This document shows positions 3,612 through 39,570 of a stretch of 46,142 nucleotides of DNA, one piece after another. How positions within the stretch are numbered: the stretch's first letter is position 1; each line of letters opens with the position of its first letter. Origin of the DNA: Escherichia phage ULINTec7; the sequence record MZ997841.1; one strand, 5' to 3'. The translations under genes were made by a program, and so were the position numbers. The notes beneath the pieces are model-generated. The model saw only the letters and a program-made list of their open reading frames with translations, was not told the DNA's origin and did no database searches.

Positions 3612-6239
3612 ATGCAAGACCTACACGCTATTCAACTTCAACTTGAAGAAGAAATGTTTAACGGCGGTATCCGTCGCTTTGAAGCGGACCAACAACGCCA
3701 GATTGCATCCGGTAATGAATCAGACACGGCATGGAATCGCCGCTTATTGTCCGAGTTAATCGCGCCAATGGCTGAAGGTATTCAGGCATACAAGGAAGAG
3801 TATGAAGGTAAAAGAGGCCGTGCACCACGTGCATTAGCTTTCATTAACTGCGTAGGGAATGAAGTAGCAGCATATATCACCATGAAAATCGTTATGGATA
3901 TGCTGAATACAGACGTTACCTTACAAGCCATCGCTATGAATGTAGCCGACCGAATCGAGGACCAAGTACGTTTTAGCAAGCTGGAAGGTCACGCAGCTAA
4001 GTACTTTGAGAAAGTGAAGAAGTCGCTTAAGGCTAGCAAGACTAAATCTTATCGTCATGCGCACAACGTAGCGGTAGTAGCTGAGAAGTCTGTTGCTGAC
4101 CGTGACGCGGATTTCTCCCGTTGGGAGGCATGGCCTAAAGACACCTTGTTGCAAATAGGCATGACCTTGCTAGAAATCTTGGAGAATAGCGTATTCTTCA
4201 ATGGTCAACCTGTCTTCCTTCGTACCTTGCGCACTAACGGCGGAAAGCATGGTGTTTACTATTTACAGACCAGTGAACATGTTGGCGAGTGGATAACTGC
4301 ATTTAAGGAACATGTAGCGCAGCTCAGCCCTGCCTATGCACCTTGCGTTATACCTCCCCGCCCTTGGGTATCACCTTTTAACGGCGGTTTCCACACTGAG
4401 AAAGTAGCAAGCCGTATTCGTCTGGTAAAAGGAAACCGCGAACACGTCCGCAAGCTGACCAAAAAGCAAATGCCAGCGGTTTACAAGGCTGTTAACGCTT
4501 TGCAGGCGACTAAGTGGCAGGTTAATAAAGAAGTTTTGCAGGTAGTAGAGGACGTTATCCGTCTCGACCTTGGTTATGGTGTACCTTCCTTTAAACCACT
4601 CATCGACCGCGAAAACAAACCAGCTAATCCGGTGCCGCTAGAATTTCAGCACCTGCGAGGCCGTGAACTGAAAGAGATGCTAACGCCGGAACAGTGGCAA
4701 TCCTTCATTAACTGGAAAGGTGAATGCACCAAGCTGTACACCGCAGAAACTAAGCGTGGCAGCAAGTCGGCGGCTACGGTCCGCATGGTTGGTCAGGCCC
4801 GTAAATATAGCCAGTTCGACGCAATCTACTTCGTGTATGCACTGGACAGCCGCAGCCGTGTATATGCGCAATCTAGCACGCTCTCACCGCAATCAAACGA
4901 CTTAGGCAAGGCACTCCTACGGTTTACCGAAGGGCAGCGCCTTGATAGCTCTGAGGCGCTTAAATGGTTTTTGGTGAACGGGGCTAATAACTGGGGTTGG
5001 GATAAGAAAACTTTCGACGTGCGCACCGCTAACGTGTTAGATGGTGAATTCCAAGACATGTGCCGCGACATTGCAGCGGATCCTCTGACCTTCACTCAAT
5101 GGGTAAATGCCGACTCCCCTTACGGCTTCCTTGCTTGGTGCTTTGAATATGCGCGTTATCTGGATGCACTGGATGAAGGCACGCAAGACCAATTCATGAC
5201 GCACCTCCCAGTCCATCAAGATGGTAGTTGTTCTGGTATCCAGCACTACAGTGCTATGCTACGCGATGCAGTAGGTGCGAAAGCGGTAAACCTTAAGCCC
5301 TCTGACTCCCCTCAAGATATTTATGGTGCCGTTGCGCAGGTAGTAATTCAGAAGAATTATGCATACATGAATGCAGAGGATGCGGAAACCTTCACTTCTG
5401 GCAGCGTGACTTTAACAGGTGCAGAACTTCGTAGCATGGCTAGTGCGTGGGATATGATAGGAATCACTCGCGGCCTGACCAAAAAGCCTGTAATGACACT
5501 ACCTTATGGCAGCACACGTCTAACCTGCCGTGAATCAGTGATTGATTATATCGTTGATTTGGAAGAAAAAGAGGCCCAACGGGCTATTGCGGAAGGGCGT
5601 ACCGCCAATCCTGTACATCCTTTTGATAATGACCGCAAAGACAGCCTGACACCTAGCGCAGCTTATAACTATATGACAGCTTTAATCTGGCCTTCTATTT
5701 CGGAAGTGGTTAAAGCTCCTATAGTGGCAATGAAAATGATTCGTCAGCTTGCACGTTTCGCAGCTAAAAGAAACGAAGGCTTAGAATATCCCTTACCAAC
5801 TGGCTTCATCTTGCAACAAAAGATAATGGCTACCGATATGCTCCGCGTATCCACTTGCTTGATGGGTGAAATCAAGATGAGTCTCCAGATTGAAACAGAT
5901 GTAGTTGATGAAACGGCAATGATGGGTGCGGCTGCTCCTAACTTCGTCCATGGTCACGATGCTAGCCACCTGATTCTGACTGTATGTGACCTAGTGGATA
6001 AAGGTATTACATCCATTGCAGTCATCCATGATTCTTTCGGTACTCATGCAGGACGTACCGCAGACCTGCGGGATAGCTTAAGGGAAGAAATGGTTAAGAT
6101 GTATCAAAACCATAATGCCCTGCAAAACCTGCTAGATGTGCACGAAGAGCGTTGGTTAGTAGACACCGGAATCCAAGTACCAGAGCAAGGAGAGTTTGAC
6201 CTTAACGAAATCTTAGTTTCAGACTATTGTTTCGCATAA
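3612..6239 (+). CDS. Single-subunit DNA-dependent RNA polymerase (T7/SP6 type)
   Basis: 875 aa with [16 protein letters not shown] and [13 protein letters not shown] motifs matching the T7 RNAP catalytic region. Confidence 0.97.
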
Positions 6240-6330: not shown

Positions 6331-6352
6331 TATTTACCGGACACTATAGGAT
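6331..6352 (+). promoter_or_regulatory. Phage-RNAP promoter
   Basis: TATTTACCGGACACTATAGGATAG matches the consensus. Confidence 0.7.
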
Positions 6353-6721: not shown

Positions 6722-7875
6722 ATGGCTATTATTAATAACATCCCATGTCCTCAATGTCAGAAGAATGGACACGATAAATCAGGCAACCACCTTATGATAT
6801 TCGAGGATGGTGCTGGGTACTGTAACCGTGGTCACTTCCATGATAATGGCAGACCTTACTACCATAAGCCTGAAGGGGGCATCGAGATAACCGAGTTGCC
6901 TATTACTGGCAATATCAAATATACACCTTCCCAGTTTAAAGAGATGGAGAAGGAAGGGAAGATTAGCGACCCTAAGCTACGCGCCATCGCACTTGGTGGT
7001 ATGCGTATGAAAGACCGTTGGGAGGTTATGAATGAGCAAGAAAGGGCAGACCAAGAAACAGAGTGGAAACTTGATGTTGAATGGTTCCTCACGCTTAAGC
7101 GTAAGAATCTTGTTTCCCGACACATTCGCGGCGACATTTGCGCATTGTATGATGTACGGGTCGGACACGATGAAGAAGGTAGAGTCTCACGGCATTACTA
7201 TCCACGCTTCGAAAAATGTGAGCTAGTAGGCGCTAAGTGTCGCACATTACCTAAAGACTTTAAGTTTGGTCATTTAGGTAAACTATTTGGTATGCAAGAT
7301 CTTTTCGGTATGAATACTTTGTCTCACGTGTTAGACAAGGGAAGACGAAAGGATTGCTTGCTTATTGTCGGCGGCGAACTGGATGCACTAGCAGCACAGC
7401 AAATGCTCCTTGATTCTGCCAAGGGTACTAAGTGGGAAGGCCAGCCTTACCATGTATGGTCTGTCAATAAAGGTGAGTCTTGCCTTGAAGAGATAGTACA
7501 GAACCGTGAACACATCGCCCAATTTAAGAAGATTATATGGGGTTTTGATGGAGATGAGGTAGGGCAGAAGCAGAATCAGCAAGCGGCTCGCCTGTTTCCT
7601 GGCAAATCCTATATCCTTGAGTACCCTTCTGGTTGCAAAGATGCCAACAAGGCATTGATGGCTGGCAAGGCTAAAGAGTTTGTTGATGCATGGTTTAATG
7701 CCAAGTCATCTGATGAAGTCTTTGGTAGCCAGATTAAATCTATCGCATCTCAAAGGGATAAGCTCAAGGCTGCACGTCCAGAGCAAGGACTATCATGGCC
7801 TTGGCCTAAGCTGAACAAGGTAACGCTAGGTATTCGTAAGAACCAACTTATCATTGTAGGCGCAGGCTCTGGCGT
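6722..7875 (+). CDS. DNA primase-helicase, exon 1 (zinc ribbon, TOPRIM, start of helicase Walker A)
   Basis: CPQC...C..GHFH zinc ribbon and LLIVGGELDALAAQQ TOPRIM resemble T7 gp4. The ORF continues to ...LIIVGAGSGV and then runs into a stop at 7895-7897 within inserted sequence; the proposed exon ends at 7875. Confidence 0.7.
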
Positions 7876-8662
7876 TAACATTAGCGCCGCCATGTAGTAA
7901 TACATGGGCAATAATCGTGTGAACTCAGGGGAAGACTAGAACAGTTAATCCTGAGCCAAGCTAGGCACACCTCAAATTCAAAGGAGGTGTTATGCAATTT
8001 AAAGAAGTACCAGATCACAGTAATTATATTTGTTATGAGAATGGCACGGTTGTTAATCGTAAGACTGGAAAGGTCTTGAAAGAAGATACAACTAACCGAG
8101 GTTATAAGCGGATTACAGTAAGCAAGGGCAACAAGGTAACACGTTGGAGTGTGCACCGTTTAGTTGCTTTACTGTTTATCCCTAACCCTCATAATTATGA
8201 AACTGTTAATCACATATCGGGAGATAAGACGGATAACTCTGTTAGTAATCTTGAGTGGATGAGCCAAGAACAGAACCAAGCCCATGCTAAATATACAGGA
8301 CTGTGTCCTAAAGGTGAGGCTGTTGGCACTAATAAGTTCAAAGAGGCAACTATTCATCAAGTGTGCAAGCTAATAGAGAAAGGTTTATCTCGCGGTGAAA
8401 TTATGAAAGCAACGAGCATCTCTAAAGCAACCTTTGATGACATTCGTAGAAGGAAGACTTGGAAGCACGTATCTTGTTCATATAAATGGTGACAATCTGG
8501 TGTGCCTAGAAGGTGCAACGACTATCCCGAAAGGGAGTACAGCCAAGCGGCTGGAAGCGCACGACACCCATCGTGGGTGATGATATAGTCTGGTCTATAT
8601 GGGGACATATAGCAGTTCATAAGAGAACGGGCGTGGCTTAGCGAACCACGTCGAACATAACG
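7876..8662 (+). mobile_element. Putative group I intron carrying an HNH homing endonuclease ORF, inserted in the helicase Walker A codons
   Basis: The 5' exon ends in U (7875) and the insert ends in G (8662). Exon 3' end GGCGU can pair with intron GCGCC at 7884-7888 (P1 with a U.G wobble). The downstream frame opens right after a stop at 8658-8660 with GKTEF and no start codon. Joining gives the contiguous P-loop GAGSGVGKTEF. Confidence 0.6.
7992..8492 (+). CDS. HNH homing endonuclease (intron-encoded)
   Basis: 166 aa with HRLVALLFIPNP...VNHISGDKTDNSVSNLEW, a typical HNH/AP2-type motif; AGGAGG SD upstream; a paralog of the ORF at 10976. Confidence 0.85.
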   Translation: MQFKEVPDHSNYICYENGTVVNRKTGKVLKEDTTNRGYKRITVSKGNKVTRWSVHRLVALLFIPNPHNYETVNHISGDKTDNSVSNLEWMSQEQNQAHAKYTGLCPKGEAVGTNKFKEATIHQVCKLIEKGLSRGEIMKATSISKATFDDIRRRKTWKHVSCSYKW

Positions 8663-9497
8663 AGGTAAGACTGAGTTCCTTCGTGAAGTAGTTAAGCACC
8701 TCATTGAAGAACACGGTGAATCTGTAGGCATCATTTCTACAGAAGACCCGATGGTCAAGGTGTCCCGTGCTTTTATCGGCAAGTGGATTGATAAGCGTAT
8801 TGAGTTACCGCCAACCAACGACCCGAAAGAAGATGGATACCGTGAGGTGTTCGACTACACCGAGGAAGAAGCTAACGCCGCCATTGATTATGTAGCTGAT
8901 ACAGGTAAGCTGTTTGTGGCTGACCTAGAGGGTGACTATTCGATGGAAAAGGTAGAGCAAACTTGCCTAGAGTTTGAGGCTATGGGCATTTCTAATATCA
9001 TCATTGATAACTTAACGGGGATTAAATTAGATGAGCGTGCTTTTGGTGGGAAGGTTGGTGCACTTGATGAATGCGTCAAGCGGATTGGTACTATCAAAGA
9101 CCGACACCCGGTTACTATATTCCTTGTATCACACCTTACACGTCCTCCGGCAAACCGTACCCAACATGAAGAAGGTGGCGAAGTTATCCTTTCTGACTTC
9201 CGAGGCTCAGGCGCTATCGGATTCTGGGCATCTTACGCCTTGGGGATTGAGCGTAATACAAGAGCTGAAACGCTTGACGAAAGGACTACCACGTACATCT
9301 CATGTGTCAAAGACCGCGACCAAGGTATCTGGACTGGAACCAAGGTCATGCTTAAGGGTGACATTCAAACCGGACGTTTAATGGAACCACAAGCCCGTAC
9401 TAAGTCATTTGATACAGGTGAAGCAAGGCAACAAGAAGTGCCGGATTTACCGGACACTATAGAAGAGACAACCTTTGACGATGAACAGGAGTTTTAA
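8663..9497 (+). CDS. DNA primase-helicase, exon 2 (helicase RecA-like domain)
   Basis: Frame reads GKTEFLREVV... from 8663, through the ORF-track ATG at 8751, to DDEQEF. FLVSHLTRP and SDFRGSGAIGF...LGIERN resemble T7 gp4 helicase motifs. Exon 1 plus exon 2 is 1989 nt, a 662-aa product. Confidence 0.7.
9445..9467 (+). promoter_or_regulatory. Phage-RNAP promoter inside the helicase 3' coding region
   Basis: ATTTACCGGACACTATAGAAGAG matches the consensus. Confidence 0.65.
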
Positions 9498-9658
9498 TGG
9501 AAATTATTAAACCAGTATTGAATATCGGTATTGAGATCCTATTCATGCTTGTGATCGCAGATTATGCTGCACGATATGGATTCAAGAAAGCTGTGAAACT
9601 TATCGTTGCATCTGGTTTTCTTATGTCAATGTTCTTTATTGTAACACGCCTTATCTAG
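9497..9658 (+). CDS. Hypothetical small membrane protein (53 aa)
   Basis: ATG overlaps the helicase stop (TAATG); hydrophobic segments present. Confidence 0.35.
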   Translation: MEIIKPVLNIGIEILFMLVIADYAARYGFKKAVKLIVASGFLMSMFFIVTRLI

Positions 9659-9671
9659 TGTATTTATCAGG

Positions 9672-9695
9672 GCTTGTCTCACATGTGAGACAGGC
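9672..9695. promoter_or_regulatory. Conserved palindromic hairpin GCTTGTCTCACATGTGAGACAGGC, copy 3
   Basis: Extended 11-bp stem around the 16-bp core, located at a gene end. Confidence 0.6.
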
Positions 9696-9730
9696 TCTTA
9701 TTAAGTACATTAAATAACTGGAGATTGATT

Positions 9731-10453
9731 ATGTATAAATTAGTATTGAATGTAGGTGATTATGTTCGTAACATCAATGAAGCCTCACGTCGTTATCGTT
9801 GCCGTGGTGTAGTGGCTCGTGTAAGTGAGAACATGTATCATGTAGAATATGAGGATGGTATTAAGGCTTCTTACCACAAGAAAACAGCACATAAATATCT
9901 TGAAAAGATTGTAGAGATAAACAATCAATGTAAGTGCATACATGATGAGGTTTGCGATAAGTGTGCACGTCAGGCAGTTAAAGCCTTTACCTTTGCTCAA
10001 CGTTATGGTTCTATGTATGGCGCTGGTCACAAGACCCTTGCAGAAGCAGCTTGGAAGACATTACAGTTTGAGCGTTCAAATGGACGACGCACCACAATTA
10101 AGAAAGAGCGCCGCAATGTAATCACTGGTAAGACTCAAAGTGAAATGATTAAGCAATGTGGCACTGCACTAGGTGTTACGCAGTTTAACACTCGTGCTCT
10201 TGGTAAATCCACAGGACAAGCTATGGTAAAGATTGGCGAAGCCATGATGCATCCAAATGTACCTGTACGAATCAGGGATGTTGACCATGCAATCACAGAA
10301 CACGGTACGCAACGACGTGTAATTAATAAGCATTTTGCCGACACTATAGAAGGTATTATTCGTAAGCAAGGGTTGAAAGGTCTTCACATCTTGAATGATG
10401 AAGAGTTACTGTACCTCCCTATTGTTACTGAAGAAACCTACGTGAATATCTAA
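9731..10453 (+). CDS. Hypothetical protein (240 aa)
   Basis: ORF with GGAG 7 nt upstream of the ATG at 9731; several Cys pairs in the N-terminal part. Confidence 0.55.
   Translation: MYKLVLNVGDYVRNINEASRRYRCRGVVARVSENMYHVEYEDGIKASYHKKTAHKYLEKIVEINNQCKCIHDEVCDKCARQAVKAFTFAQRYGSMYGAGHKTLAEAAWKTLQFERSNGRRTTIKKERRNVITGKTQSEMIKQCGTALGVTQFNTRALGKSTGQAMVKIGEAMMHPNVPVRIRDVDHAITEHGTQRRVINKHFADTIEGIIRKQGLKGLHILNDEELLYLPIVTEETYVNI
10334..10354 (+). promoter_or_regulatory. Phage-promoter-like sequence inside the ORF
   Basis: TTTTGCCGACACTATAGAAGG. Confidence 0.4.
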
Positions 10454-10463
10454 GGAGTTAATC

Positions 10464-10682
10464 ATGACTAAAGTATTAATTTATATGCGTGGACCTCATA
10501 AATGCTATGCAGTTGTAGCACCAAATGGTGTTAAGCCCTATAGTACTTCAAAAGGATTGGCATTAATAGGTGCTAGTAGTAGTGCAAGTTTCCAAATGGA
10601 ACTTTTTGGTCATTGGAATGAAAGGCAATTCCGTGAGGATTTTAAAGTCATTGGCAGCTTCATGGTGAAACATGCAGAATAA
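10464..10682 (+). CDS. Hypothetical protein (72 aa)
   Basis: Strong SD TAAGGAG before the ATG. Confidence 0.55.
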   Translation: MTKVLIYMRGPHKCYAVVAPNGVKPYSTSKGLALIGASSSASFQMELFGHWNERQFREDFKVIGSFMVKHAE

Positions 10683-11455: not shown

Positions 11456-13988
11456 TTGGAAAGAATTTGGAAAGAATCGCATACTTGTCATGGATGCTGA
11501 AAGTAAAGGTTTACTTGATGCTATCCGATATGGACACCGTGAAGATGTGCATATCATTTGCTGTATGGATTTGCTTACTACCGAGGAGTTTCTCTTCTTT
11601 GACCCGTATGAGATGCGTGACCCTGAAGCAAGAGAACGCCTGAAGGAATGGGAAGGTCATCAAGATGGAACCTTGGTTGACGGTGTTAACTTCCTGAAGC
11701 ACTGTGAGGCTATTGTGTCGCAGAACTTCCTAGGGTATGACGGTCTTCTCTTTGAGAAAGCATTCCCTGATATTTGGAAAGGCTTTAACTATACCGAGAA
11801 GCGCGGTAAGGGCAGACTCCGTGCTGACCTGTGTCCTATCCGTGTTGTAGATACGCTGGTGATGAGTCGTCTGCTAAACCCAGATAGACGCCTTCCTCCG
11901 CAAGCATATGCCAAAGGCATGGGTAACGTCGCCCCTCACTCAATTGAGGCGCACGGCATCCGTATAGGCCGCTATAAACCAGAGAATGAGGACTGGTCTA
12001 AACTAACTGACCACATGGTTCACCGTGTACGTGAAGACGTGGCAATTGGTCGTGACCTTTTCCTATGGCTTTACAACGGAGAGTGGACGGAGCACAAACG
12101 CCGTGGCGTGAATAAACGTACTGGCCTAGGTATTGAGACAGCCTTCCACATGGAGTCCATTGTGGCGCTGGAGATGAGCCGTCAGGCCGAGCGCGGGTTC
12201 CGTCTGGACATCGACAAGGCTTTGTCCCGATGCGAAGAATTGGACGCTAAGATTGACGAGACAGTCGCAGCGTTCCGCCCTCACATGCCTATGCGTATCA
12301 AGTCTAAACCTTTTAAACCGGAAGAAAAGAATGAAGTATGCCAACGCGCAAATGAGTATGGAGCTAGCAACAATATACCTACTGTCCTTGACCCCTCACA
12401 CTTTCTTCATGCCGAGAGACGAGGAGATCGCAAGACAGTATGGAGTGTCACTACTAAGTCTGGTGATTGGTCGGCTAGTGTCAAGAAAGACTTTCCTCAC
12501 CTTAGAGGAAACCGTAATGACACGCCAAGCATCAAGTGGATTGGCGCTTACTCGCCTGTTACTTTCGAAGAGATTCCCTTGGGTAACAGGGATACAGTTA
12601 AGCAAGTGCTCTATGATTATGGATGGAAAGGTGTTGAATTTAACGATACCGAGCAAGCGCATCTCGATGAGCACGGAGTGTTACCCAAACCTTGGAGTGG
12701 TAAGATAAATGAAAAGTCCCTTACTTTATGGCAAGAAAGAGCCGCACGTGAAGGTAAAACAGTCCCTGATTGGTGCTTGGGTATCGCTGCATGGTACATA
12801 CTCGTATCCCGTCGTGGTCAGATACTCAACCGTGGTGACGTTGAAGCCTTCAACGAGAAGGGAACGTGGCCCTCGCAGGCTGGTGTACGAAAGTGTCGCG
12901 GCCTTGTACCTGTAGCATTCAACAAGGAGCTAGGAATCAATGCGCAGCAATACTACGAGAGGTACGGATATTGGCCTACGTCTGACAAAGATGACGGAGA
13001 GTGGCGTGTTCCAGCTGTTGCTATTAGTATTGGCACTTCTACGTTCCGTATGCGTCATCGTAACGTGGTTAATATTCCTGCCCGTGGCTTGTATCCTTTA
13101 CGTGATTTATTCATAGCAGGGAAAGGCAAGCTAATCCTTGGTTGTGACGGTGCAGGTCTTGAACTGCGTGTCCTGTCTCACTTCATGAATGACCCTGAGT
13201 ACCAAGAGATTGTACTGCACGGTGATATTCATACGCATAACCAGATGAAGGCTGGTCTTCCTAAGCGTGATATGGCGAAGACGTTTATATACGCCTTCCT
13301 CTATGGCTCTGGTATAGCCAACCTTGCAGCAGTATGTGGTGTTACTGAGGAGGAAATGAAGGAAGTTGTGGCAAGATTCGAGATTGAACTGCCGTCTCTT
13401 GCACGTCTTCGTGAGAATGTTATCGCACAAGGTAACAAGTTTGGCTACCTGCAAGCACCTGATGGGCATTGGGGTCGCATCCGCATGTCTGGTGGTGAAC
13501 TTAAAGAGCACACTATGCTTAACGTATTACTCCAGATGACTGGCTCTTTGTGTATGAAATATGCATTAGTAAAGGCATTTGCAGTAATGCGCAAGGAAGG
13601 TGTAGCCTTGGATGCTATGGGAAGCCCTTGTGGTGTGGCTAACGTCCACGATGAAATCCAGATGGAAGTTCCTGAAGAAGAGGTCTTGTACCTTAACTAT
13701 GACCTACCTTTCACCTTAGAAGGGTTTGAAACAGAGAAGGCTGCTGTGAAAGCAGTGTTCGATGCAGAAGAGAAACGTGTTCATGTGGATTCTGAAGGAC
13801 GTATGTGGTCTGCTGCAAACCTCGTTAGTGTTGATGCTGATGCTGGTGTACTTCATTGTCAGCGCCGTTATCACCGTGCTGGGCATATCATTGCCGACGC
13901 CATGACTTGGGCTGGTCAGTATCTGAAGATGCGTTGCCCGATGGCAGGAGAATATAAGATTGGCACAAGTTGGAAGGAAACACACTGA
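11442..13988 (+). CDS. DNA polymerase (family A, T7 gp5-like)
   Basis: N-terminal exo motif ILVMDAESKG resembles T7 MIVSDIEAN; GCDGAGLELRVLSHF, GDIHTHNQ...AKTFIYAFLYG and HDEIQ polymerase motifs. Start is uncertain between 11442 and 11490. Confidence 0.93.
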   Translation: MLDVDWKEFGKNRILVMDAESKGLLDAIRYGHREDVHIICCMDLLTTEEFLFFDPYEMRDPEARERLKEWEGHQDGTLVDGVNFLKHCEAIVSQNFLGYDGLLFEKAFPDIWKGFNYTEKRGKGRLRADLCPIRVVDTLVMSRLLNPDRRLPPQAYAKGMGNVAPHSIEAHGIRIGRYKPENEDWSKLTDHMVHRVREDVAIGRDLFLWLYNGEWTEHKRRGVNKRTGLGIETAFHMESIVALEMSRQAERGFRLDIDKALSRCEELDAKIDETVAAFRPHMPMRIKSKPFKPEEKNEVCQRANEYGASNNIPTVLDPSHFLHAERRGDRKTVWSVTTKSGDWSASVKKDFPHLRGNRNDTPSIKWIGAYSPVTFEEIPLGNRDTVKQVLYDYGWKGVEFNDTEQAHLDEHGVLPKPWSGKINEKSLTLWQERAAREGKTVPDWCLGIAAWYILVSRRGQILNRGDVEAFNEKGTWPSQAGVRKCRGLVPVAFNKELGINAQQYYERYGYWPTSDKDDGEWRVPAVAISIGTSTFRMRHRNVVNIPARGLYPLRDLFIAGKGKLILGCDGAGLELRVLSHFMNDPEYQEIVLHGDIHTHNQMKAGLPKRDMAKTFIYAFLYGSGIANLAAVCGVTEEEMKEVVARFEIELPSLARLRENVIAQGNKFGYLQAPDGHWGRIRMSGGELKEHTMLNVLLQMTGSLCMKYALVKAFAVMRKEGVALDAMGSPCGVANVHDEIQMEVPEEEVLYLNYDLPFTLEGFETEKAAVKAVFDAEEKRVHVDSEGRMWSAANLVSVDADAGVLHCQRRYHRAGHIIADAMTWAGQYLKMRCPMAGEYKIGTSWKETH

Positions 13989-24708: not shown

Positions 24709-24733
24709 TATTTACTGGACACTATAGAAGGGA
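24709..24733 (+). promoter_or_regulatory. Phage-RNAP promoter upstream of the capsid gene
   Basis: TATTTACTGGACACTATAGAAGGG. Confidence 0.8.
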
Positions 24734-25986: not shown

Positions 25987-25994
25987 TACCTATG

Positions 25995-26028
25995 CCCTAT
26001 CTACCCTGCGTAGGTAGGGTTCTTTTTG
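25995..26028 (+). terminator. Intrinsic-type terminator after the capsid gene
   Basis: 10-bp stem (25995-26004 pairing with 26010-26019), 5-nt loop, then TTCTTTTTGTT. Confidence 0.7.
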
Positions 26029-26040
26029 TTAGGAGGGTTC

Positions 26041-29180: not shown

Positions 29181-29902
29181 TGGCTATAGGTTCAGCCGTT
29201 ATGTCTGGTATGTCTTCTATTGGTAGTATGTTTGCAGGCAGCGGTGCAGCAGCCGCTGCTGGAGGTACTGCCGCAGGTGGCGGAGGTTTGCTAGGTTCAC
29301 TAGGCGGATTCCTAAGTGGCTCCACTGCTGGCTTCTCTAATGCTGGCCTCCTTGGTGCTGGCCTTCAAGGGTTAGGCTTGATTGGTGATCTCTTTGGTGG
29401 AAGTGATGAAGCCAAGGCAATGAAGAAAGCACAAGAAGAGCAATGGCGGCAGCAGCTTATTGCTACACAAGAGGCATACAAGACAGTGGCAGACGCAGAG
29501 CGTTCTGCTGCTAAACAGTATCATGCAGATGCAATAAGCAATCAGGCTTCACTACTACAGCAGCGAGCACAGGTTGCATTACTAGCAGGTGCTACTGGTA
29601 CTGGTGGTAACTCTGTATCTTCTATGCTGAATGACTTAGCAGCAGAGGGTGGGAGGAACCAGAGTACAATTATTGATAACTATGAGAATCAGAAGATTAA
29701 CTTCACTAATCAGCTTAAGTCCATCCAGCGAGGTGGGCAGATGCAGATGCGTGAGTTTAAGAAACCTTCTGCTGTGAGCACCTTGGTTCAAGGTATCCCA
29801 AGTCTGGCTTCTGCTTATGTAACTGGTAGCAAGTCGGGTATGGCTTTAGGTAAAGCTCTAACGGATTCTCGTACATATTCATCTGGAACAAGAGGTATTT
29901 AA
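29180..29902 (+). CDS. Internal virion protein
   Basis: Gly/Ala-rich N-terminal region; AGGAGGG SD; position. Confidence 0.55.
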   Translation: MAIGSAVMSGMSSIGSMFAGSGAAAAAGGTAAGGGGLLGSLGGFLSGSTAGFSNAGLLGAGLQGLGLIGDLFGGSDEAKAMKKAQEEQWRQQLIATQEAYKTVADAERSAAKQYHADAISNQASLLQQRAQVALLAGATGTGGNSVSSMLNDLAAEGGRNQSTIIDNYENQKINFTNQLKSIQRGGQMQMREFKKPSAVSTLVQGIPSLASAYVTGSKSGMALGKALTDSRTYSSGTRGI

Positions 29903-32914: not shown

Positions 32915-35900
32915 ATGGAACAAGATATTAATACTAATTGGGCTGGTTATGTCCAGTCTACTCCTGAGCCGTTTTCTATTGAGGCGGCTCCGGTATCGGC
33001 TCCTACGATACGCCAGCGTAATGAGCTACAAGAGCAAGTCCTTGAAGCTAAAGCAGACGCGGATATCATAGGTGCTGTAGGTGCTGCCTTCCAGAATGAG
33101 TGGTTGGCATTCGGAGGTAAGAGATGGTATGACCGTGCCACTGCTGACTTCACACCTCAACCTGATTTTGAAATCCAACCAGAGCAACGTGAAGCTCTTC
33201 GCTTCAAATACGGAACGGATATGATGCAGACAATCACTGAGGGTGTTCGTTCTGAGGATGAATTAAACTTCCGTATTCAGAATGCTGATGAAGATCTTGA
33301 GCGCAATAAGCGCATTGCTCAGGCTGGCTGGGCTGGTTCTGTGGCAACTATTGGCGCTGCTGTGCTTGACCCTGTAGGCTGGGTTGCCTCTATACCAACT
33401 GGCGGTGCAGCTAAAGTTGGCCTTGTAGGCCGTGCTGTGCGTGGCGCTATTGCCGCTGGCGTGAGTAACGCCGCTATTGAATCCGTGTTAGTCCAAGGTG
33501 ACATGACCCGTGATTTAGATGACATTATGGTAGCACTAGGCTCAGGTATGGCTATGGGTGGTGTTATCGGCGCTGTGGCGCGTGGCAGGGCCGCCAAACT
33601 CAGCGACCAAGGGGATGACAGGGCTGCGAGCGTTGTGCGAAGTGCAGACGCAGGTGATCGGTATATCCGTGCTGTTGCGGATGACAGTATAGGTGCGATG
33701 CGCGTTAAGGGCGAGGAGGTGCTTACTGAGGGCGCATTTGATATATCTAGTAAAGGCGAAGACTTGCTGAAAACATTGCAGAGGGAAGGAAACTCTATTG
33801 ATATGGCCCCTCGCCGCTGGGCCGGAACTCTGTCTGCCCTTGGTACTGTCGTACATTCCTCTCAGGATGCAAGTGTACGCGGTCTTGGTGCTCGTCTGTT
33901 TGAGTCCCCGCAAGGCTTAGGTGCACAGAAGGCATCGGCTAGTCTCATGCAGAATACTAACTTGAACCGTCTGAAATCTGCTGATATGAATCGTTTCAAC
34001 GATGGGTTCGATTTATGGCTCAAAGAGAATAATATCAATCCGGTTGCAGGTCATACTAACTCTCACTATGTGCAGCAATATAATGAGAAGGTATGGGAGG
34101 CTGTACGCATCGGTATGAATGAGTCTACGCCTAAGTCTATCCGTATGGCAGCAGAGGGGCAGCAAGCTATGTATCGTGAAGCCTTAGCATTACGTCAACG
34201 CTCTGGTGAAGCTGGGTTTGAAAAGGTTAAAGCAGATGATAAGTACATGCCTGATATTTTTGACAGTATGAAGGCTCGTCGTCAATTCGGTATGCACGAT
34301 AAAGAGGACATCATTGAGCTATTCTCTCGTGCATACCAGAATGGTTCTCGTAAGGTTCCAAAGGAAGTGGCTGATGATATTGCACGTGCACAAGTAAACC
34401 GTGTTGTGGATGCCACCCTGACAGGACGTATGAGTTTCGAAAAAGCTATGTCTGGTCAGACTAAGGCAGAATATGAAGCAATAATGCGCAAGGCAGGCTT
34501 CAGTGATGAAGAAATTGAAAAGATGGTAGAAGCTCTGGATAATAAAGAAACCAGAGATAATATCTCTAACCGAGCTAAGATGAGTTTAGGCTTAGATGTT
34601 ACTCAAGAATACAATGGCATTCGTATGCGTGACTTTATGAATACTAACGTGGAAGAGTTAACAGATAACTACATGAAGGAAGCGGCAGGTGGTGCTGCCT
34701 TGGCTCGTCAAGGTTTCTCTACCTATCAGGCTGCACTTAATGCAATTGACCTTGTAGAGCGAAATGCACGAAATGCAACTAAAGATACAAAAGCACACGC
34801 ACAATTTGAAGCGGAGTCTGCTAATATTCGTCAATCAGAACCTGATTACAAGAAGGCACAAGAGAAGATTGAAGAGTTAAAGAAGAGACTTAAATTGAAA
34901 GAGAAAGATGAAGCAGCAGGTCTGGCTATTGATGAAGAAATCCGTCAAATGCGAGAAGGTCTTCGCCTAATTATGGGTAAATCTATTGATGCGGACCCAC
35001 AGGCTTTGTCTACTAAAATGCTGCGTCGTGGTCGTGACATTACAGGTGTACTTCGCTTAGGTCAGATGGGCTTCGCACAGCTAGGTGAACTTGCTAACTT
35101 CATGGGTGAGTTTGGTATTGCTGCAACCACTATAGCTTTAGGTAAGCAATTCCGCTTTACATCTAAAGCTTTGCGGAGCGGGGATGGCTTCTTCCGAGAT
35201 AAGAACTTGGCAGAAGTAGAGAGGATGGTAGGTTACATTGGTGAGGATAACTGGATAACAACCAAGGGTGCACGTCCAGATGAGTTTGGTGATGTAACCA
35301 CAGTAAGAGGGATGATGGCTCACTTTGACCAATCCATGAACTCAATACGTCGTGCTCAGACCAACCTATCGCTCTTCCGCATGGCACAGGGTTCTCTGGA
35401 GCGAATGACTAATAGGCAAATAGCCTTGTCTTTCATTGACCACCTTGAAGGCAAGAAGATTATTCCTCAGAAGAAACTGGAGGAACTTGGTCTTACTCAG
35501 GGGTTCATGACTAACCTACAGAAGCACTATGATGCTAACTCTAAGGGTTCTGGCTTGCTTGGATTTGATACAATGCCTTATGCCATGGGTGAAACTTTAG
35601 CTAATGCTATTCGTCGTAAGTCAGGTCTAATTATCCAACGTAACTTCATTGGTGATGAAGGGATCTGGATGAACAAAGCGCTTGGTAAAACTTTTGCACA
35701 GCTTAAGTCTTTCTCTTTGGTATCTGGTGAGAAGCAATTTGGTCGAGGTATTCGCCACGATAAGATTGGTCTTGCTAAGAAGACAGCCTATGGGTTTGCT
35801 TTAGGTTCCATAGTATATGCAGCGAAAGCTTATGTGAACTCTATTGGACGAGAAGACCAAGATGAATATCTGGAAGAGAAACTATCCCCTAAAGGGTTGG

Positions 35901-37194: not shown

Positions 37195-37389
37195 ATGATT
37201 AACTCCGAACTGGTAGATAGTGGTGTGAAGCTTGCGCCACCTGCACTCGTATCAGGTGGGTACTTCCTCGGTATCAGTTGGGATAATTGGGTGTTAATAG
37301 CAACATTCATTTATACCGTGTTGCAAATTGGGGACTGGTTTTATAATAAGTTCAAGATTTGGAGGGAGAAGCGTGAGCGTACACAATAA
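37195..37389 (+). CDS. Holin (T7 gp17.5-like)
   Basis: 64 aa; IATFIYTVLQIGDWFYNKFKIWREKRE resembles T7 gp17.5 VAAIAYTVVQIGAKVVDKMIDWKKANKE; one transmembrane segment and a charged C-terminus. Confidence 0.75.
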   Translation: MINSELVDSGVKLAPPALVSGGYFLGISWDNWVLIATFIYTVLQIGDWFYNKFKIWREKRERTQ

Positions 37390-37672
37390 ACATGCAGCTA
37401 CAGAGGACGAGGTTGGCATTCTGCATGGTGCTATTACCAAAATCTTTAATAAGAAAGCACAGGCAATACTGGACACTATAGAAGAAGACCCAGATGCAGC
37501 ATTGCATTTAGTGTCTGGTAAAGACATTGGAGCTATGTGTAAGTGGGTTCTTGATAATGGTATTACCGCTACACCTGCTGCACAGCAGGAAGAGTCCAAG
37601 TTATCTAAGCGCCTCAAGGCTATCCGAGAGGCATCCAGTGGTAAGATAATTCAATTCACTAAGGAGGATTGA
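37373..37672 (+). CDS. Terminase small subunit (putative)
   Basis: GTG start at 37373 with GGAGGGA SD; sits immediately before the large terminase. Confidence 0.5.
   Translation: MSVHNKHAATEDEVGILHGAITKIFNKKAQAILDTIEEDPDAALHLVSGKDIGAMCKWVLDNGITATPAAQQEESKLSKRLKAIREASSGKIIQFTKED
37466..37488 (+). promoter_or_regulatory. Phage-RNAP promoter inside the small terminase gene
   Basis: AATACTGGACACTATAGAAGAAG. Confidence 0.6.
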
Positions 37673-39570
37673 TGGCTAAGGCAAGAGAATCACAAGCGGA
37701 GGCTCTTGCCAGATGGGAGATGCTACAGGAGTTACAGCAGACCTTTCCCTATACAGCGGAAGGTTTGCTTCTCTTTGCAGATACAGTTATCCATAACTTG
37801 ATTGCAGGCAACCCTCATCTGATTCGTATGCAGGCTGATATCTTGAAGTTCCTATTCTACGGACATAAGTATCGCCTCATCGAAGCGCCTCGTGGTATCG
37901 CTAAGACAACACTATCAGCAATCTATACGGTATTCCGTATTATCCACGAACCGCATAAGCGTATCATGGTTGTATCCCAAAACGCTAAGCGAGCAGAGGA
38001 AATCGCTGGTTGGGTGGTGAAAATCTTCCGTGGCCTAGACTTCCTTGAGTTTATGCTGCCGGATATCTACGCAGGGGACCGTGCATCCGTTAAAGCATTT
38101 GAGATTCATTACACCCTACGTGGTAGTGATAAGTCTCCCTCTGTATCCTGTTACTCAATCGAAGCAGGTATGCAGGGTGCTCGTGCTGATATTATTCTAG
38201 CGGATGACGTAGAGTCGATGCAGAATGCTCGTACGGCAGCGGGCCGTGCCTTGCTTGAGGAACTGACTAAGGAGTTTGAATCTATCAACCAGTTTGGGGA
38301 TATCATTTACCTTGGTACGCCTCAGAACGTAAACTCTATCTACAACAACCTACCTGCTCGTGGCTACTCTGTTCGTATCTGGACTGCACGTTACCCCTCA
38401 GTGGAGCAGGAGCAATGCTATGGTGACTTCCTTGCACCTATGATTGTGCAGGATATGAAGGACAACCCCGCACTTCGCTCTGGTTATGGGTTGGATGGTA
38501 ATAGTGGTGCACCTTGTGCCCCTGAAATGTATGATGATGAAGTCCTGATTGAGAAGGAAATCTCTCAGGGTGCAGCTAAGTTCCAGCTTCAGTTCATGCT
38601 TAACACTCGCATGATGGATGCAGACCGCTACCCACTACGCCTGAACAACCTCATCTTCACCTCATTTGGTACAGAGGAAGTCCCTGTGATGCCTACGTGG
38701 AGCAATGACTCCATCAACATCATCGGTGATGCACCGAAGTATGGCAATAAGCCTACAGACTTCATGTATAGACCTGTGGCTCGCCCGTATGAATGGGGTG
38801 CTGTTACACGCAAGATTATGTATATTGACCCTGCTGGTGGTGGTAAGAATGGTGACGAAACAGGCGTGGCTATAGTCTTTCTGCACGGCACATTCATTTA
38901 CGTGTATCAGTGCTTCGGTGTGCCAGGCGGATACCGTGAATCGTCCCTGAATCGCATTGTGCAGGCCGCAAAGCAGGCGGGTGTTAAAGAGGTATTCATT
39001 GAGAAGAACTTTGGTCATGGCGCGTTTGAGGCCGTTATAAAGCCATACTTTGAACGAGAGTGGCCTGTAACTCTGGAAGAGGATTACGCCACAGGACAGA
39101 AAGAGTTGCGTATCATTGAGACGCTGGAGCCACTCATGGCGGCGCACAGGCTCATCTTCAATGCCGAGATGGTCAAGTCTGACCTTGAGTCAGTACAGCA
39201 CTATCCACTTGAACTACGCATGTCCTACAGCCTTTTCAATCAAATGTCGAACATCACGATTGAGAAGAACAGCCTCCGGCACGATGACCGCTTAGACGCT
39301 CTGTATGGCGCTATACGGCAATTAACTTCTCAGATAGACTATGACGAGGTTACACGGATTAATCGCCTCAGAGCGCAGGAGATGCGCGATTACATCCATG
39401 CTATGAACACACCTCACCTCCGTAGGGCGATGCTCTATGGAGATTATGGCACTGAGCGAAGAGTAACCAACACTTCCGTGGCTATGCAGCAAAGAGTGTA
39501 CGGTCAGAATTACAGGAGTAAATCGGCCAACCGAAATACACTTTCTGCAAGGATTTCAAGGACTTATTAA
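37669..39570 (+). CDS. Terminase large subunit
   Basis: 633 aa; ATPase and nuclease region with IILADDVES; position and size match T7 gp19. Confidence 0.85.
   Translation: MMAKARESQAEALARWEMLQELQQTFPYTAEGLLLFADTVIHNLIAGNPHLIRMQADILKFLFYGHKYRLIEAPRGIAKTTLSAIYTVFRIIHEPHKRIMVVSQNAKRAEEIAGWVVKIFRGLDFLEFMLPDIYAGDRASVKAFEIHYTLRGSDKSPSVSCYSIEAGMQGARADIILADDVESMQNARTAAGRALLEELTKEFESINQFGDIIYLGTPQNVNSIYNNLPARGYSVRIWTARYPSVEQEQCYGDFLAPMIVQDMKDNPALRSGYGLDGNSGAPCAPEMYDDEVLIEKEISQGAAKFQLQFMLNTRMMDADRYPLRLNNLIFTSFGTEEVPVMPTWSNDSINIIGDAPKYGNKPTDFMYRPVARPYEWGAVTRKIMYIDPAGGGKNGDETGVAIVFLHGTFIYVYQCFGVPGGYRESSLNRIVQAAKQAGVKEVFIEKNFGHGAFEAVIKPYFEREWPVTLEEDYATGQKELRIIETLEPLMAAHRLIFNAEMVKSDLESVQHYPLELRMSYSLFNQMSNITIEKNSLRHDDRLDALYGAIRQLTSQIDYDEVTRINRLRAQEMRDYIHAMNTPHLRRAMLYGDYGTERRVTNTSVAMQQRVYGQNYRSKSANRNTLSARISRTY

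Follow-up and report, generated by a model that had tools for sequence, protein, structure and literature searches.

Three sequences inside protein-coding genes of Escherichia phage ULINTec7 (MZ997841.1; the window is the whole stretch of 46,142 nucleotides analysed here) are probably promoters recognised by the single-subunit RNA polymerase (RNAP) that the phage itself encodes, one each in the genes for the primase/helicase, a gp10-like protein and the small terminase. These promoters appear to be written into coding sequence because the genome has almost no intergenic space. By megablast, the window is a near-complete Vectrevirus genome of the K1E/K1-5 type (SP6 supergroup, Autographiviridae, Molineuxvirinae) with 94-99.9% identity to many published genomes, and its long open reading frames (ORFs) all lie on the plus strand; a BLAST comparison of the two window ends found no terminal repeats between them. 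The genome encodes its own RNAP, which would act on these promoters.

3612 to 6239, plus strand: single-subunit phage RNA polymerase gene (Pfam RNA_pol, 6.8e-89; RPOL_N, 3.6e-31), aligning with the K1E gp7 region
9445 to 9467 (-17 to +6), plus strand: predicted promoter in the primase/helicase gene, +1 G at 9462, ATTTACCGGACACTATAGAAGAG, 38.3 bits, fifth best in the genome
10332 to 10354, plus strand: weaker promoter-like site in the gp10-like ORF, +1 at 10349, ATTTTGCCGACACTATAGAAGGT, 17.0 bits
37464 to 37486, plus strand: predicted promoter in the small-terminase gene, +1 at 37481, CAATACTGGACACTATAGAAGAA, 25.2 bits

The consensus of the phage-RNAP promoters is ATTTACTGGACACTATAGAAG, found on the plus strand only, and the block from -8 to -12 has been reported to set specificity in this phage group (PMC4099482). 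The 13-mer GACACTATAGAAG is present in the window as eight exact copies, all on the plus strand, and with up to two mismatches it is matched 14 times against 1.44 expected, a count reached in none of 100 shuffles. A weight matrix built from nine intergenic promoters only, listed below, was scanned over both strands.

+1 at 6349, 6543, 14537, 15306, 16544, 19694, 24727, 39586 and 41265, plus strand: the nine reference intergenic promoters
24710 to 24732, plus strand: a consensus intergenic promoter upstream of the capsid gene, +1 at 24727

All sites scoring 17 bits or more lie on the plus strand, co-directional with the genes, and the highest non-promoter position on either strand reaches 5.2 bits. 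That a short AT-rich motif should have turned up at the three sites by chance in 46 kb of sequence has next to no probability, and this reading was rejected on the shuffle counts, on scores of 17-38 bits over that two-strand background, and on the presence of the same three sites in K1E and K1-5. The first-pass annotation had described promoter matches inside coding sequences, and all three were found no more than 2 nt from where it had put them, with chance excluded. Its term 'near-perfect' suits 9462, which has a single mismatch; 37481 has three and 10349 four. It had rightly singled out the copy placed at 10334 as the weaker one, which has the lowest score of the three and a true -17 position at 10332, and its estimate that the terminase copy lies about 200 nt before the large-terminase start agrees with the 191 nt between the +1 at 37481 and the ATG at 37672, the true -17 being 37464 rather than 37466. 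Host sigma-70 promoters were considered for 9445-9467, 10332-10354 and 37464-37486 and rejected, as the scans gave no such site at these positions and the genome totals are at or below shuffle expectation.

The immediate setting of the site in the helicase tail comprises the following features.

6722 to 7875, plus strand: primase/helicase exon 1, contiguous with the sequence from 8663 onward in K1E, K1-5 and SP6
8663 to 9497, plus strand: primase/helicase exon 2, whose variable acidic tail contains the promoter
9497 to 9658, plus strand: gp9.5-like hydrophobic ORF of 53 aa, the first gene downstream of 9462

Site 9462 falls within the last 12 codons of the helicase frame, which ends at 9497, and its +1 stands 35 nt before the ATG of the next ORF (9497), a leader that includes the ribosome-binding site of that ORF. 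The sole mismatch, a C at -11, is common to the intergenic promoters at 6349 and 6543. The bases of the site encode D-L-P-D-T-I-E-E of the C-terminal linker (residues about 646-653), beyond the DnaB_C domain that ends, by Pfam, at residue 604 of 662 and thus about 58 residues from the C-terminus. Alignment shows this promoter-encoded linker to be variable between genera in both length and sequence, and to be followed by a conserved acidic ...EF end; a single-sequence structure model of the helicase was poor throughout (mean pLDDT 39). Comparison with the genomes of K1-5, K1E, SP6, PP1, PM85, Erwinia S2 and Klebsiella H01 and with 28 IMG/VR loci delineated eight promoter-specificity classes (TGGACAC, GTGACAC, GGCGGAC, AGACCAC, GGGCTAC, TGGCGAG, CACCCAG and GTTGCAC), and in all eight a helicase-tail promoter sits 23-47 nt before the helicase stop. 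The lineages that have it are Vectrevirus, SP6-type, PP1, PM85-type, L072, Klebsiella, Erwinia and L080. From -12 to -5, these sites match the consensus of their own phage at 7-8 of 8 positions and the consensus of other classes at 0-5, and the linker residues track the promoter (LPDTIE, LGDTIE, LGRTIE, LETTIE, IGATIE, IVAGIE, LPPNID and MCCTIE), while the flanking V-P and I-E remain unchanged in the alignment.

These observations bear directly on an alternative to RNAP promoters, namely that protein-level constraint on a D-T-I-E peptide, or common ancestry, preserves the matches as cryptic sites that the RNAP ignores in vivo. This alternative is unlikely over the three sites taken together, and in the helicase it is opposed by a peptide that is not conserved but shifts to what the phage's own promoter requires. 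As the peptide follows the consensus of its own phage, selection on the promoter explains the pattern and protein constraint cannot. The conservation and co-variation of site 9462 are strong evidence for function, and real promoter activity at this position is highly probable. A broader proposal, held with somewhat more belief than doubt, sees in the helicase-tail promoter an ancestral overlapping element of the whole subfamily, whose bases were rewritten at each change of RNAP specificity, forcing replacements in the linker (PD, GD, GR, ET, GA, VA, PP and CC). No description of this co-variation between promoter specificity and helicase linker was found in the literature searched, which did not extend to the key genome papers, where it may already be noted.

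The helicase-tail site is not indispensable, given that it is degraded in Erwinia and was lost once in Salmonella. One Erwinia copy carries five mismatches and another has CATAG for TATAG; in a BP12B-like Salmonella phage (L069, the IMG/VR copy of BP12B, 8650-9210) the helicase-tail promoter has been lost, and an HNH endonuclease gene lies directly 3' of the helicase. The same phage has a gp11-internal site that matches the SP6-type consensus from -17 to +2 (CGT to GGT relative to SP6), which may compensate for the lost helicase-tail promoter.

How the three sites are read as protein is relevant both to the preferred reading and to its main competitor. All three occupy one frame, in which a Glu codon opens with the +1 G and GAC ACT ATA GAA specifies Asp-Thr-Ile-Glu, and this identity of peptide and frame is what would be expected if a D-T-I-E peptide were being preserved. 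A second frame is impossible, as TATAG would create a TAG stop, and no embedded site in the annotated genes of eight genomes uses the third frame (TAT-AGA), with a possible exception at KpH01 13079 in an unannotated 78-aa ORF. Embedded sites in the annotated genes of these eight genomes always read ATA GAA or ATA GGT (Ile-Glu or Ile-Gly). ATA accounts for 16% of Ile codons in the ULINTec7 genome, and, for a given peptide, the codons observed have a probability of the order of 1e-4 (1.4e-4 to 4.3e-4 over the three sites, with 1.4e-4 for the terminase), which argues against peptide constraint. The match, moreover, reaches synonymous positions and, further upstream, codons whose residues differ from one of the three genes to the next, again contrary to what peptide constraint would yield. 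Within Vectrevirus, a Fisher test on third positions gave p values of 0.58 (helicase), 0.30 (small terminase) and 0.046 (gp10), and third-position diversity in sliding windows ranked 89/244, 16/95 and 15/236, respectively, so that gp10 alone gave a suggestive result. The non-significant results for helicase and small terminase are compatible with cryptic sites, but these within-genus tests are weak because only 6-7 codons are informative, and the case for promoters was rested instead on cross-genus co-variation and codon choice.

The second predicted promoter of the set is found near the distal end of the late region, where the relevant features are:

25994 to 26030, plus strand: hairpin and U-run terminator just after the major capsid gene
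37373 to 37672, plus strand: small-terminase gene with a GTG start, 99 aa (Pfam DNA_Packaging_2, 3e-16)
37672 to 39570, plus strand: large-terminase gene, the first complete gene downstream of 37481 (Pfam Terminase-T7_RNaseH-like, 1.6e-35)

Site 37481 is exact from -14 to +5, with its three mismatches all at -17 to -15, and encodes A-I-L-D-T-I-E-E with the rare ATA codon used twice. All Vectrevirus small-terminase genes inspected keep it with no more than one core substitution, namely those of the window, K1-5, K1E, 12 IMG/VR loci and three GenBank phages that have diverged to 88-91% identity in this gene, the Vectrevirus sequence being GC[A/T] ATA CTG GAC ACT ATA GAA. Sister clades specify a near-identical peptide, AILD[AS]IE, by way of ATC CTN GAT GCN ATC GAG, which is no promoter; on these alignments the terminase site is a gain of Vectrevirus alone. 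The ancestral small-terminase peptide was already A-I-L-x-x-I-E-E, which favours the cryptic-site alternative, but sister clades that write nearly the same peptide with wholly different codons speak against that alternative and for a promoter. With the site present in a single genus, the divergence behind this evidence is shallow. The matrix scan found no other promoter between 24727 and 37481, making 37481 the only one in the 13 kb past the capsid terminator, and with that terminator upstream and no other promoter before it, the site stands in a good position to restart transcription into the large terminase. It probably boosts large-terminase transcription, and genuine promoter activity here is likely, with less assurance than in the helicase tail. 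Folding of the leader RNA downstream of 37481 (z -2.8) gave nothing compelling.

Coding-embedded sites occur elsewhere in the late region of related phages, at 29410 in gp36 of SP6 and at 33740 in gp39 of Klebsiella H01, both internal-virion-protein genes, which suggests that these two sites and 37481 are independent solutions to the same need. Homing-endonuclease genes were also encountered around the terminases. In mutPK1A2 (L092), one lies between the small and large terminase genes (2604-2936), where a terminase-internal promoter would also drive it, and in K1E another lies inside the large terminase gene (38777-39310).

The third site is the least secure of the three. It resides in the following gene.

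9731 to 10453, plus strand: gp10-like ORF of 240 aa with no Pfam family, host of site 10349

The +1 at 10349 precedes the end of this ORF by 104 nt and the gp10.5-like start at 10464 by 115 nt. The site is exact from -9 to +4 and has TGCC in place of ACTG at -13 to -10; of the five specificity positions, three (-12 to -10) thus depart from the consensus, with a GCC combination that is present in no intergenic promoter. Its score is 13 bits under that of the weakest intergenic promoter and far above background. The site is kept in all Vectrevirus loci although identity of the gp10 protein drops to 68%, it is invariant from -9 to +4 across 10 distinct Vectrevirus sequences, and third-position diversity within it is 0.059, compared with a mean of 0.187 for the gene, the basis of the rank of 15 among 236 windows given above. 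Conservation of the gp10 site is limited to Vectrevirus, with a shifted and weak counterpart in SP6. The cryptic-site alternative is most plausible here, owing to the deviation at -13 to -10 and to the example of L080, a phage with its own specificity (GTTGCAC) that retains an SP6-type CGT GAC ACT ATA GAG in its gp10 homologue, so promoter-like strings can persist without being cognate. Site 10349 may be weak or inactive, and whether it has real promoter activity is nearly an even question, tilted slightly towards the negative. The leader RNA fold downstream of it (z 0.0) was likewise uncompelling.

Taking the three sites as RNAP promoters, a mechanism can be proposed by analogy with T7 and SP6, in which the polymerase would bind a 23-bp duplex and read the AT-rich part from -17 to -13 and the specificity part from -12 to -8 as duplex. 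The TATA at -4 to -1 would melt, and RNA would begin with the G of GAAG and run co-directionally with all genes. The transcript from 9462 would carry gp9.5, gp10 and onward to the DNA polymerase, with the gp9.5 Shine-Dalgarno sequence in its leader, and 10349, if active, would supply extra transcripts for gp10.5 through DNA polymerase. The mRNA from 37481 would carry the large-terminase gene without a complete small-terminase gene, plausibly topping up the far end of a late region of about 13 kb that would otherwise depend on read-through of the capsid terminator. The host protein segments would tolerate the residues imposed on them, which in the helicase belong to a variable linker before the acidic ...EF tail. 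The start of RNA at these sites, their relative strengths and their benefit to the phage are what we infer from the DNA. The idea put forward in the first-pass annotation, that internal promoters would raise expression of downstream genes, is favoured by the comparative evidence of co-variation, rare ATA codons and retention across Vectrevirus, as a presumed activity. Its description of the sites as internal holds in the literal sense, but 9462 is merely in the last 12 codons and would be, functionally, the promoter of the next transcription unit. The 5'-truncated transcripts that it foresaw would follow as a trivial consequence, with no evident protein product.

The sites could instead be real RNAP sites whose main role is other than expression, be it replication priming or activation, transcription-driven genome entry, or DNA maturation and packaging. 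For some T7 promoters, roles in replication or packaging have been proposed (φ1.1A/B at the origin, φOL and φOR). A φOR-like packaging role has also been invoked in a related vibriophage (PMC4099482), site 37481 is inside the packaging gene cluster, and a strong hairpin follows within about 40 nt of the K1-5 promoter at 8337. Each of the three sites nevertheless has the placement of an ordinary gene promoter, co-directional with the genes and 35-191 nt ahead of a start codon that has a ribosome-binding site; the tandem pair at 6349 and 6543 after the RNAP gene is a better counterpart of the T7 origin promoters, and none of the three sites was seen to adjoin AT-rich or origin-like sequence. A main role other than expression is accordingly very improbable, more so than cryptic sites, and promoters that serve downstream genes remain the preferred reading.

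Long late regions with internal points of re-initiation are familiar from T7, in which the class III promoters φ13 and φ17 lie past the capsid-gene terminator and restore transcription of distal late genes. Site 37481 resembles them as a re-initiation point, but φ13 and φ17 are intergenic, whereas 37481 is within the small-terminase ORF and its transcript would lack a complete small-terminase gene. T7 also has a promoter for its own RNAP, φ4c at 12671, inside gene 4 (11565-13265), much as 9462 is inside the primase/helicase ORF, and φ4c, φ4.3 and 9462 would all feed genes leading to DNA polymerase. However, 594 nt separate φ4c from the end of gene 4, as against 35 nt for 9462, whose position in the tail has no counterpart there, and the better positional counterpart of 9462 is φ4.3 (13341), which is right after gene 4 and outside the helicase ORF. 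T7 and ULINTec7 belong to different subfamilies with promoter specificity regions unrelated in sequence, and what they share is a layout, by analogy and not by orthology.

The closer relatives K1E and K1-5 share the three sites at orthologous positions, differing from ULINTec7 at 0-1 positions between -17 and +5; ULINTec7 is a different isolate, 94-96% identical over most of its length, with an intron-like insertion in the helicase. SP6 has the same 23-bp promoter family, including the helicase-tail site and a weak gp11-internal site. It is said to have 12 promoter copies (PMC11880802), presumably including the coding-embedded copies, without which the promoter scan falls short of that total. 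The GenBank records of K1-5, SP6, K1E, PP1, PM85, Erwinia S2 and Klebsiella H01 annotate no promoters, and neither 5'-end mapping for Vectrevirus or SP6 nor promoter tables were found in the literature searched, from which the primary genome papers were absent. Promoters embedded in genes are an already known kind of feature, here in a close relative of published genomes, and are in that sense ordinary.

The region around the helicase contains additional elements that shape the context of site 9462.

7876 to 8662, plus strand: 787-nt insertion in the helicase (BLAST breakpoints), with an HNH homing-endonuclease ORF at 7992-8492 (Pfam HNH_3, HTH_7)
9649 to 9721, plus strand: long interrupted hairpin between gp9.5 and gp10, core GTCTCACATGTGAGAC, dG -31.7 kcal/mol, z -5.4

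The insertion splits the Walker A motif of the helicase (GAGSGV|GKT), and joining 7875 to 8663 yields an intact 662-aa helicase with no stops. It matches Rfam RF00028 with 37.2 bits (E 1.2e-7), short of the gathering score, which is 50, and is a probable group I intron. The gp9.5-like ORF is an indel, present in K1E and not in K1-5, and the distance from 9462 to the hairpin and gp10 consequently differs by 162 nt between close relatives. The palindromic core GTCTCACATGTGAGAC occurs in six copies (6314, 6505, 9676, 10860, 16496 and 32868), all intergenic and one with a single mismatch, of which three are directly upstream of promoters. The hairpin after gp9.5 is labelled a terminator in record R4596, a label that is doubted because the hairpin has no U-run, and the structure looks more like an RNase III-type processing or stability element. 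The T7-type class II terminator motif ATCTGTTT has no copies on the plus strand.

Embedded promoters of this kind leave the understanding of these phages unchanged. In phages of the K1E/SP6 type, searches for promoters should cover coding sequence as well as intergenic space. In the helicase tail, nature offers a clean case of one set of bases serving both a DNA signal and a protein, with the signal winning, and the site could mark RNAP specificity classes in new genomes. If it is indeed an ancestral element, promoter specificity would be readable from helicase sequences alone, and a regulatory signal would be dictating protein sequence. The sites further reveal the synonymous changes that would silence each promoter with the protein unaltered, of use in phage engineering and in expression systems based on K1E RNAP.

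An additional promoter-like element was noted in the early region at about 2389-2411 (+1 near 2406), upstream of a gp6-like gene and the RNAP gene. This variant has the usual specificity region, with TATAAGAG or TATAAGAT replacing TATAGAAG. K1E is stated to have no phage promoter upstream of its RNAP gene (PMC4099482). Counterparts of the variant are found at K1-5 2031, K1E 2796, SP6 2121, PP1 2710, Erwinia S2 1645 and Klebsiella H01 2553, so that it is conserved and co-varying in seven of seven genomes, and by means of it the phage RNAP might feed its own gene.
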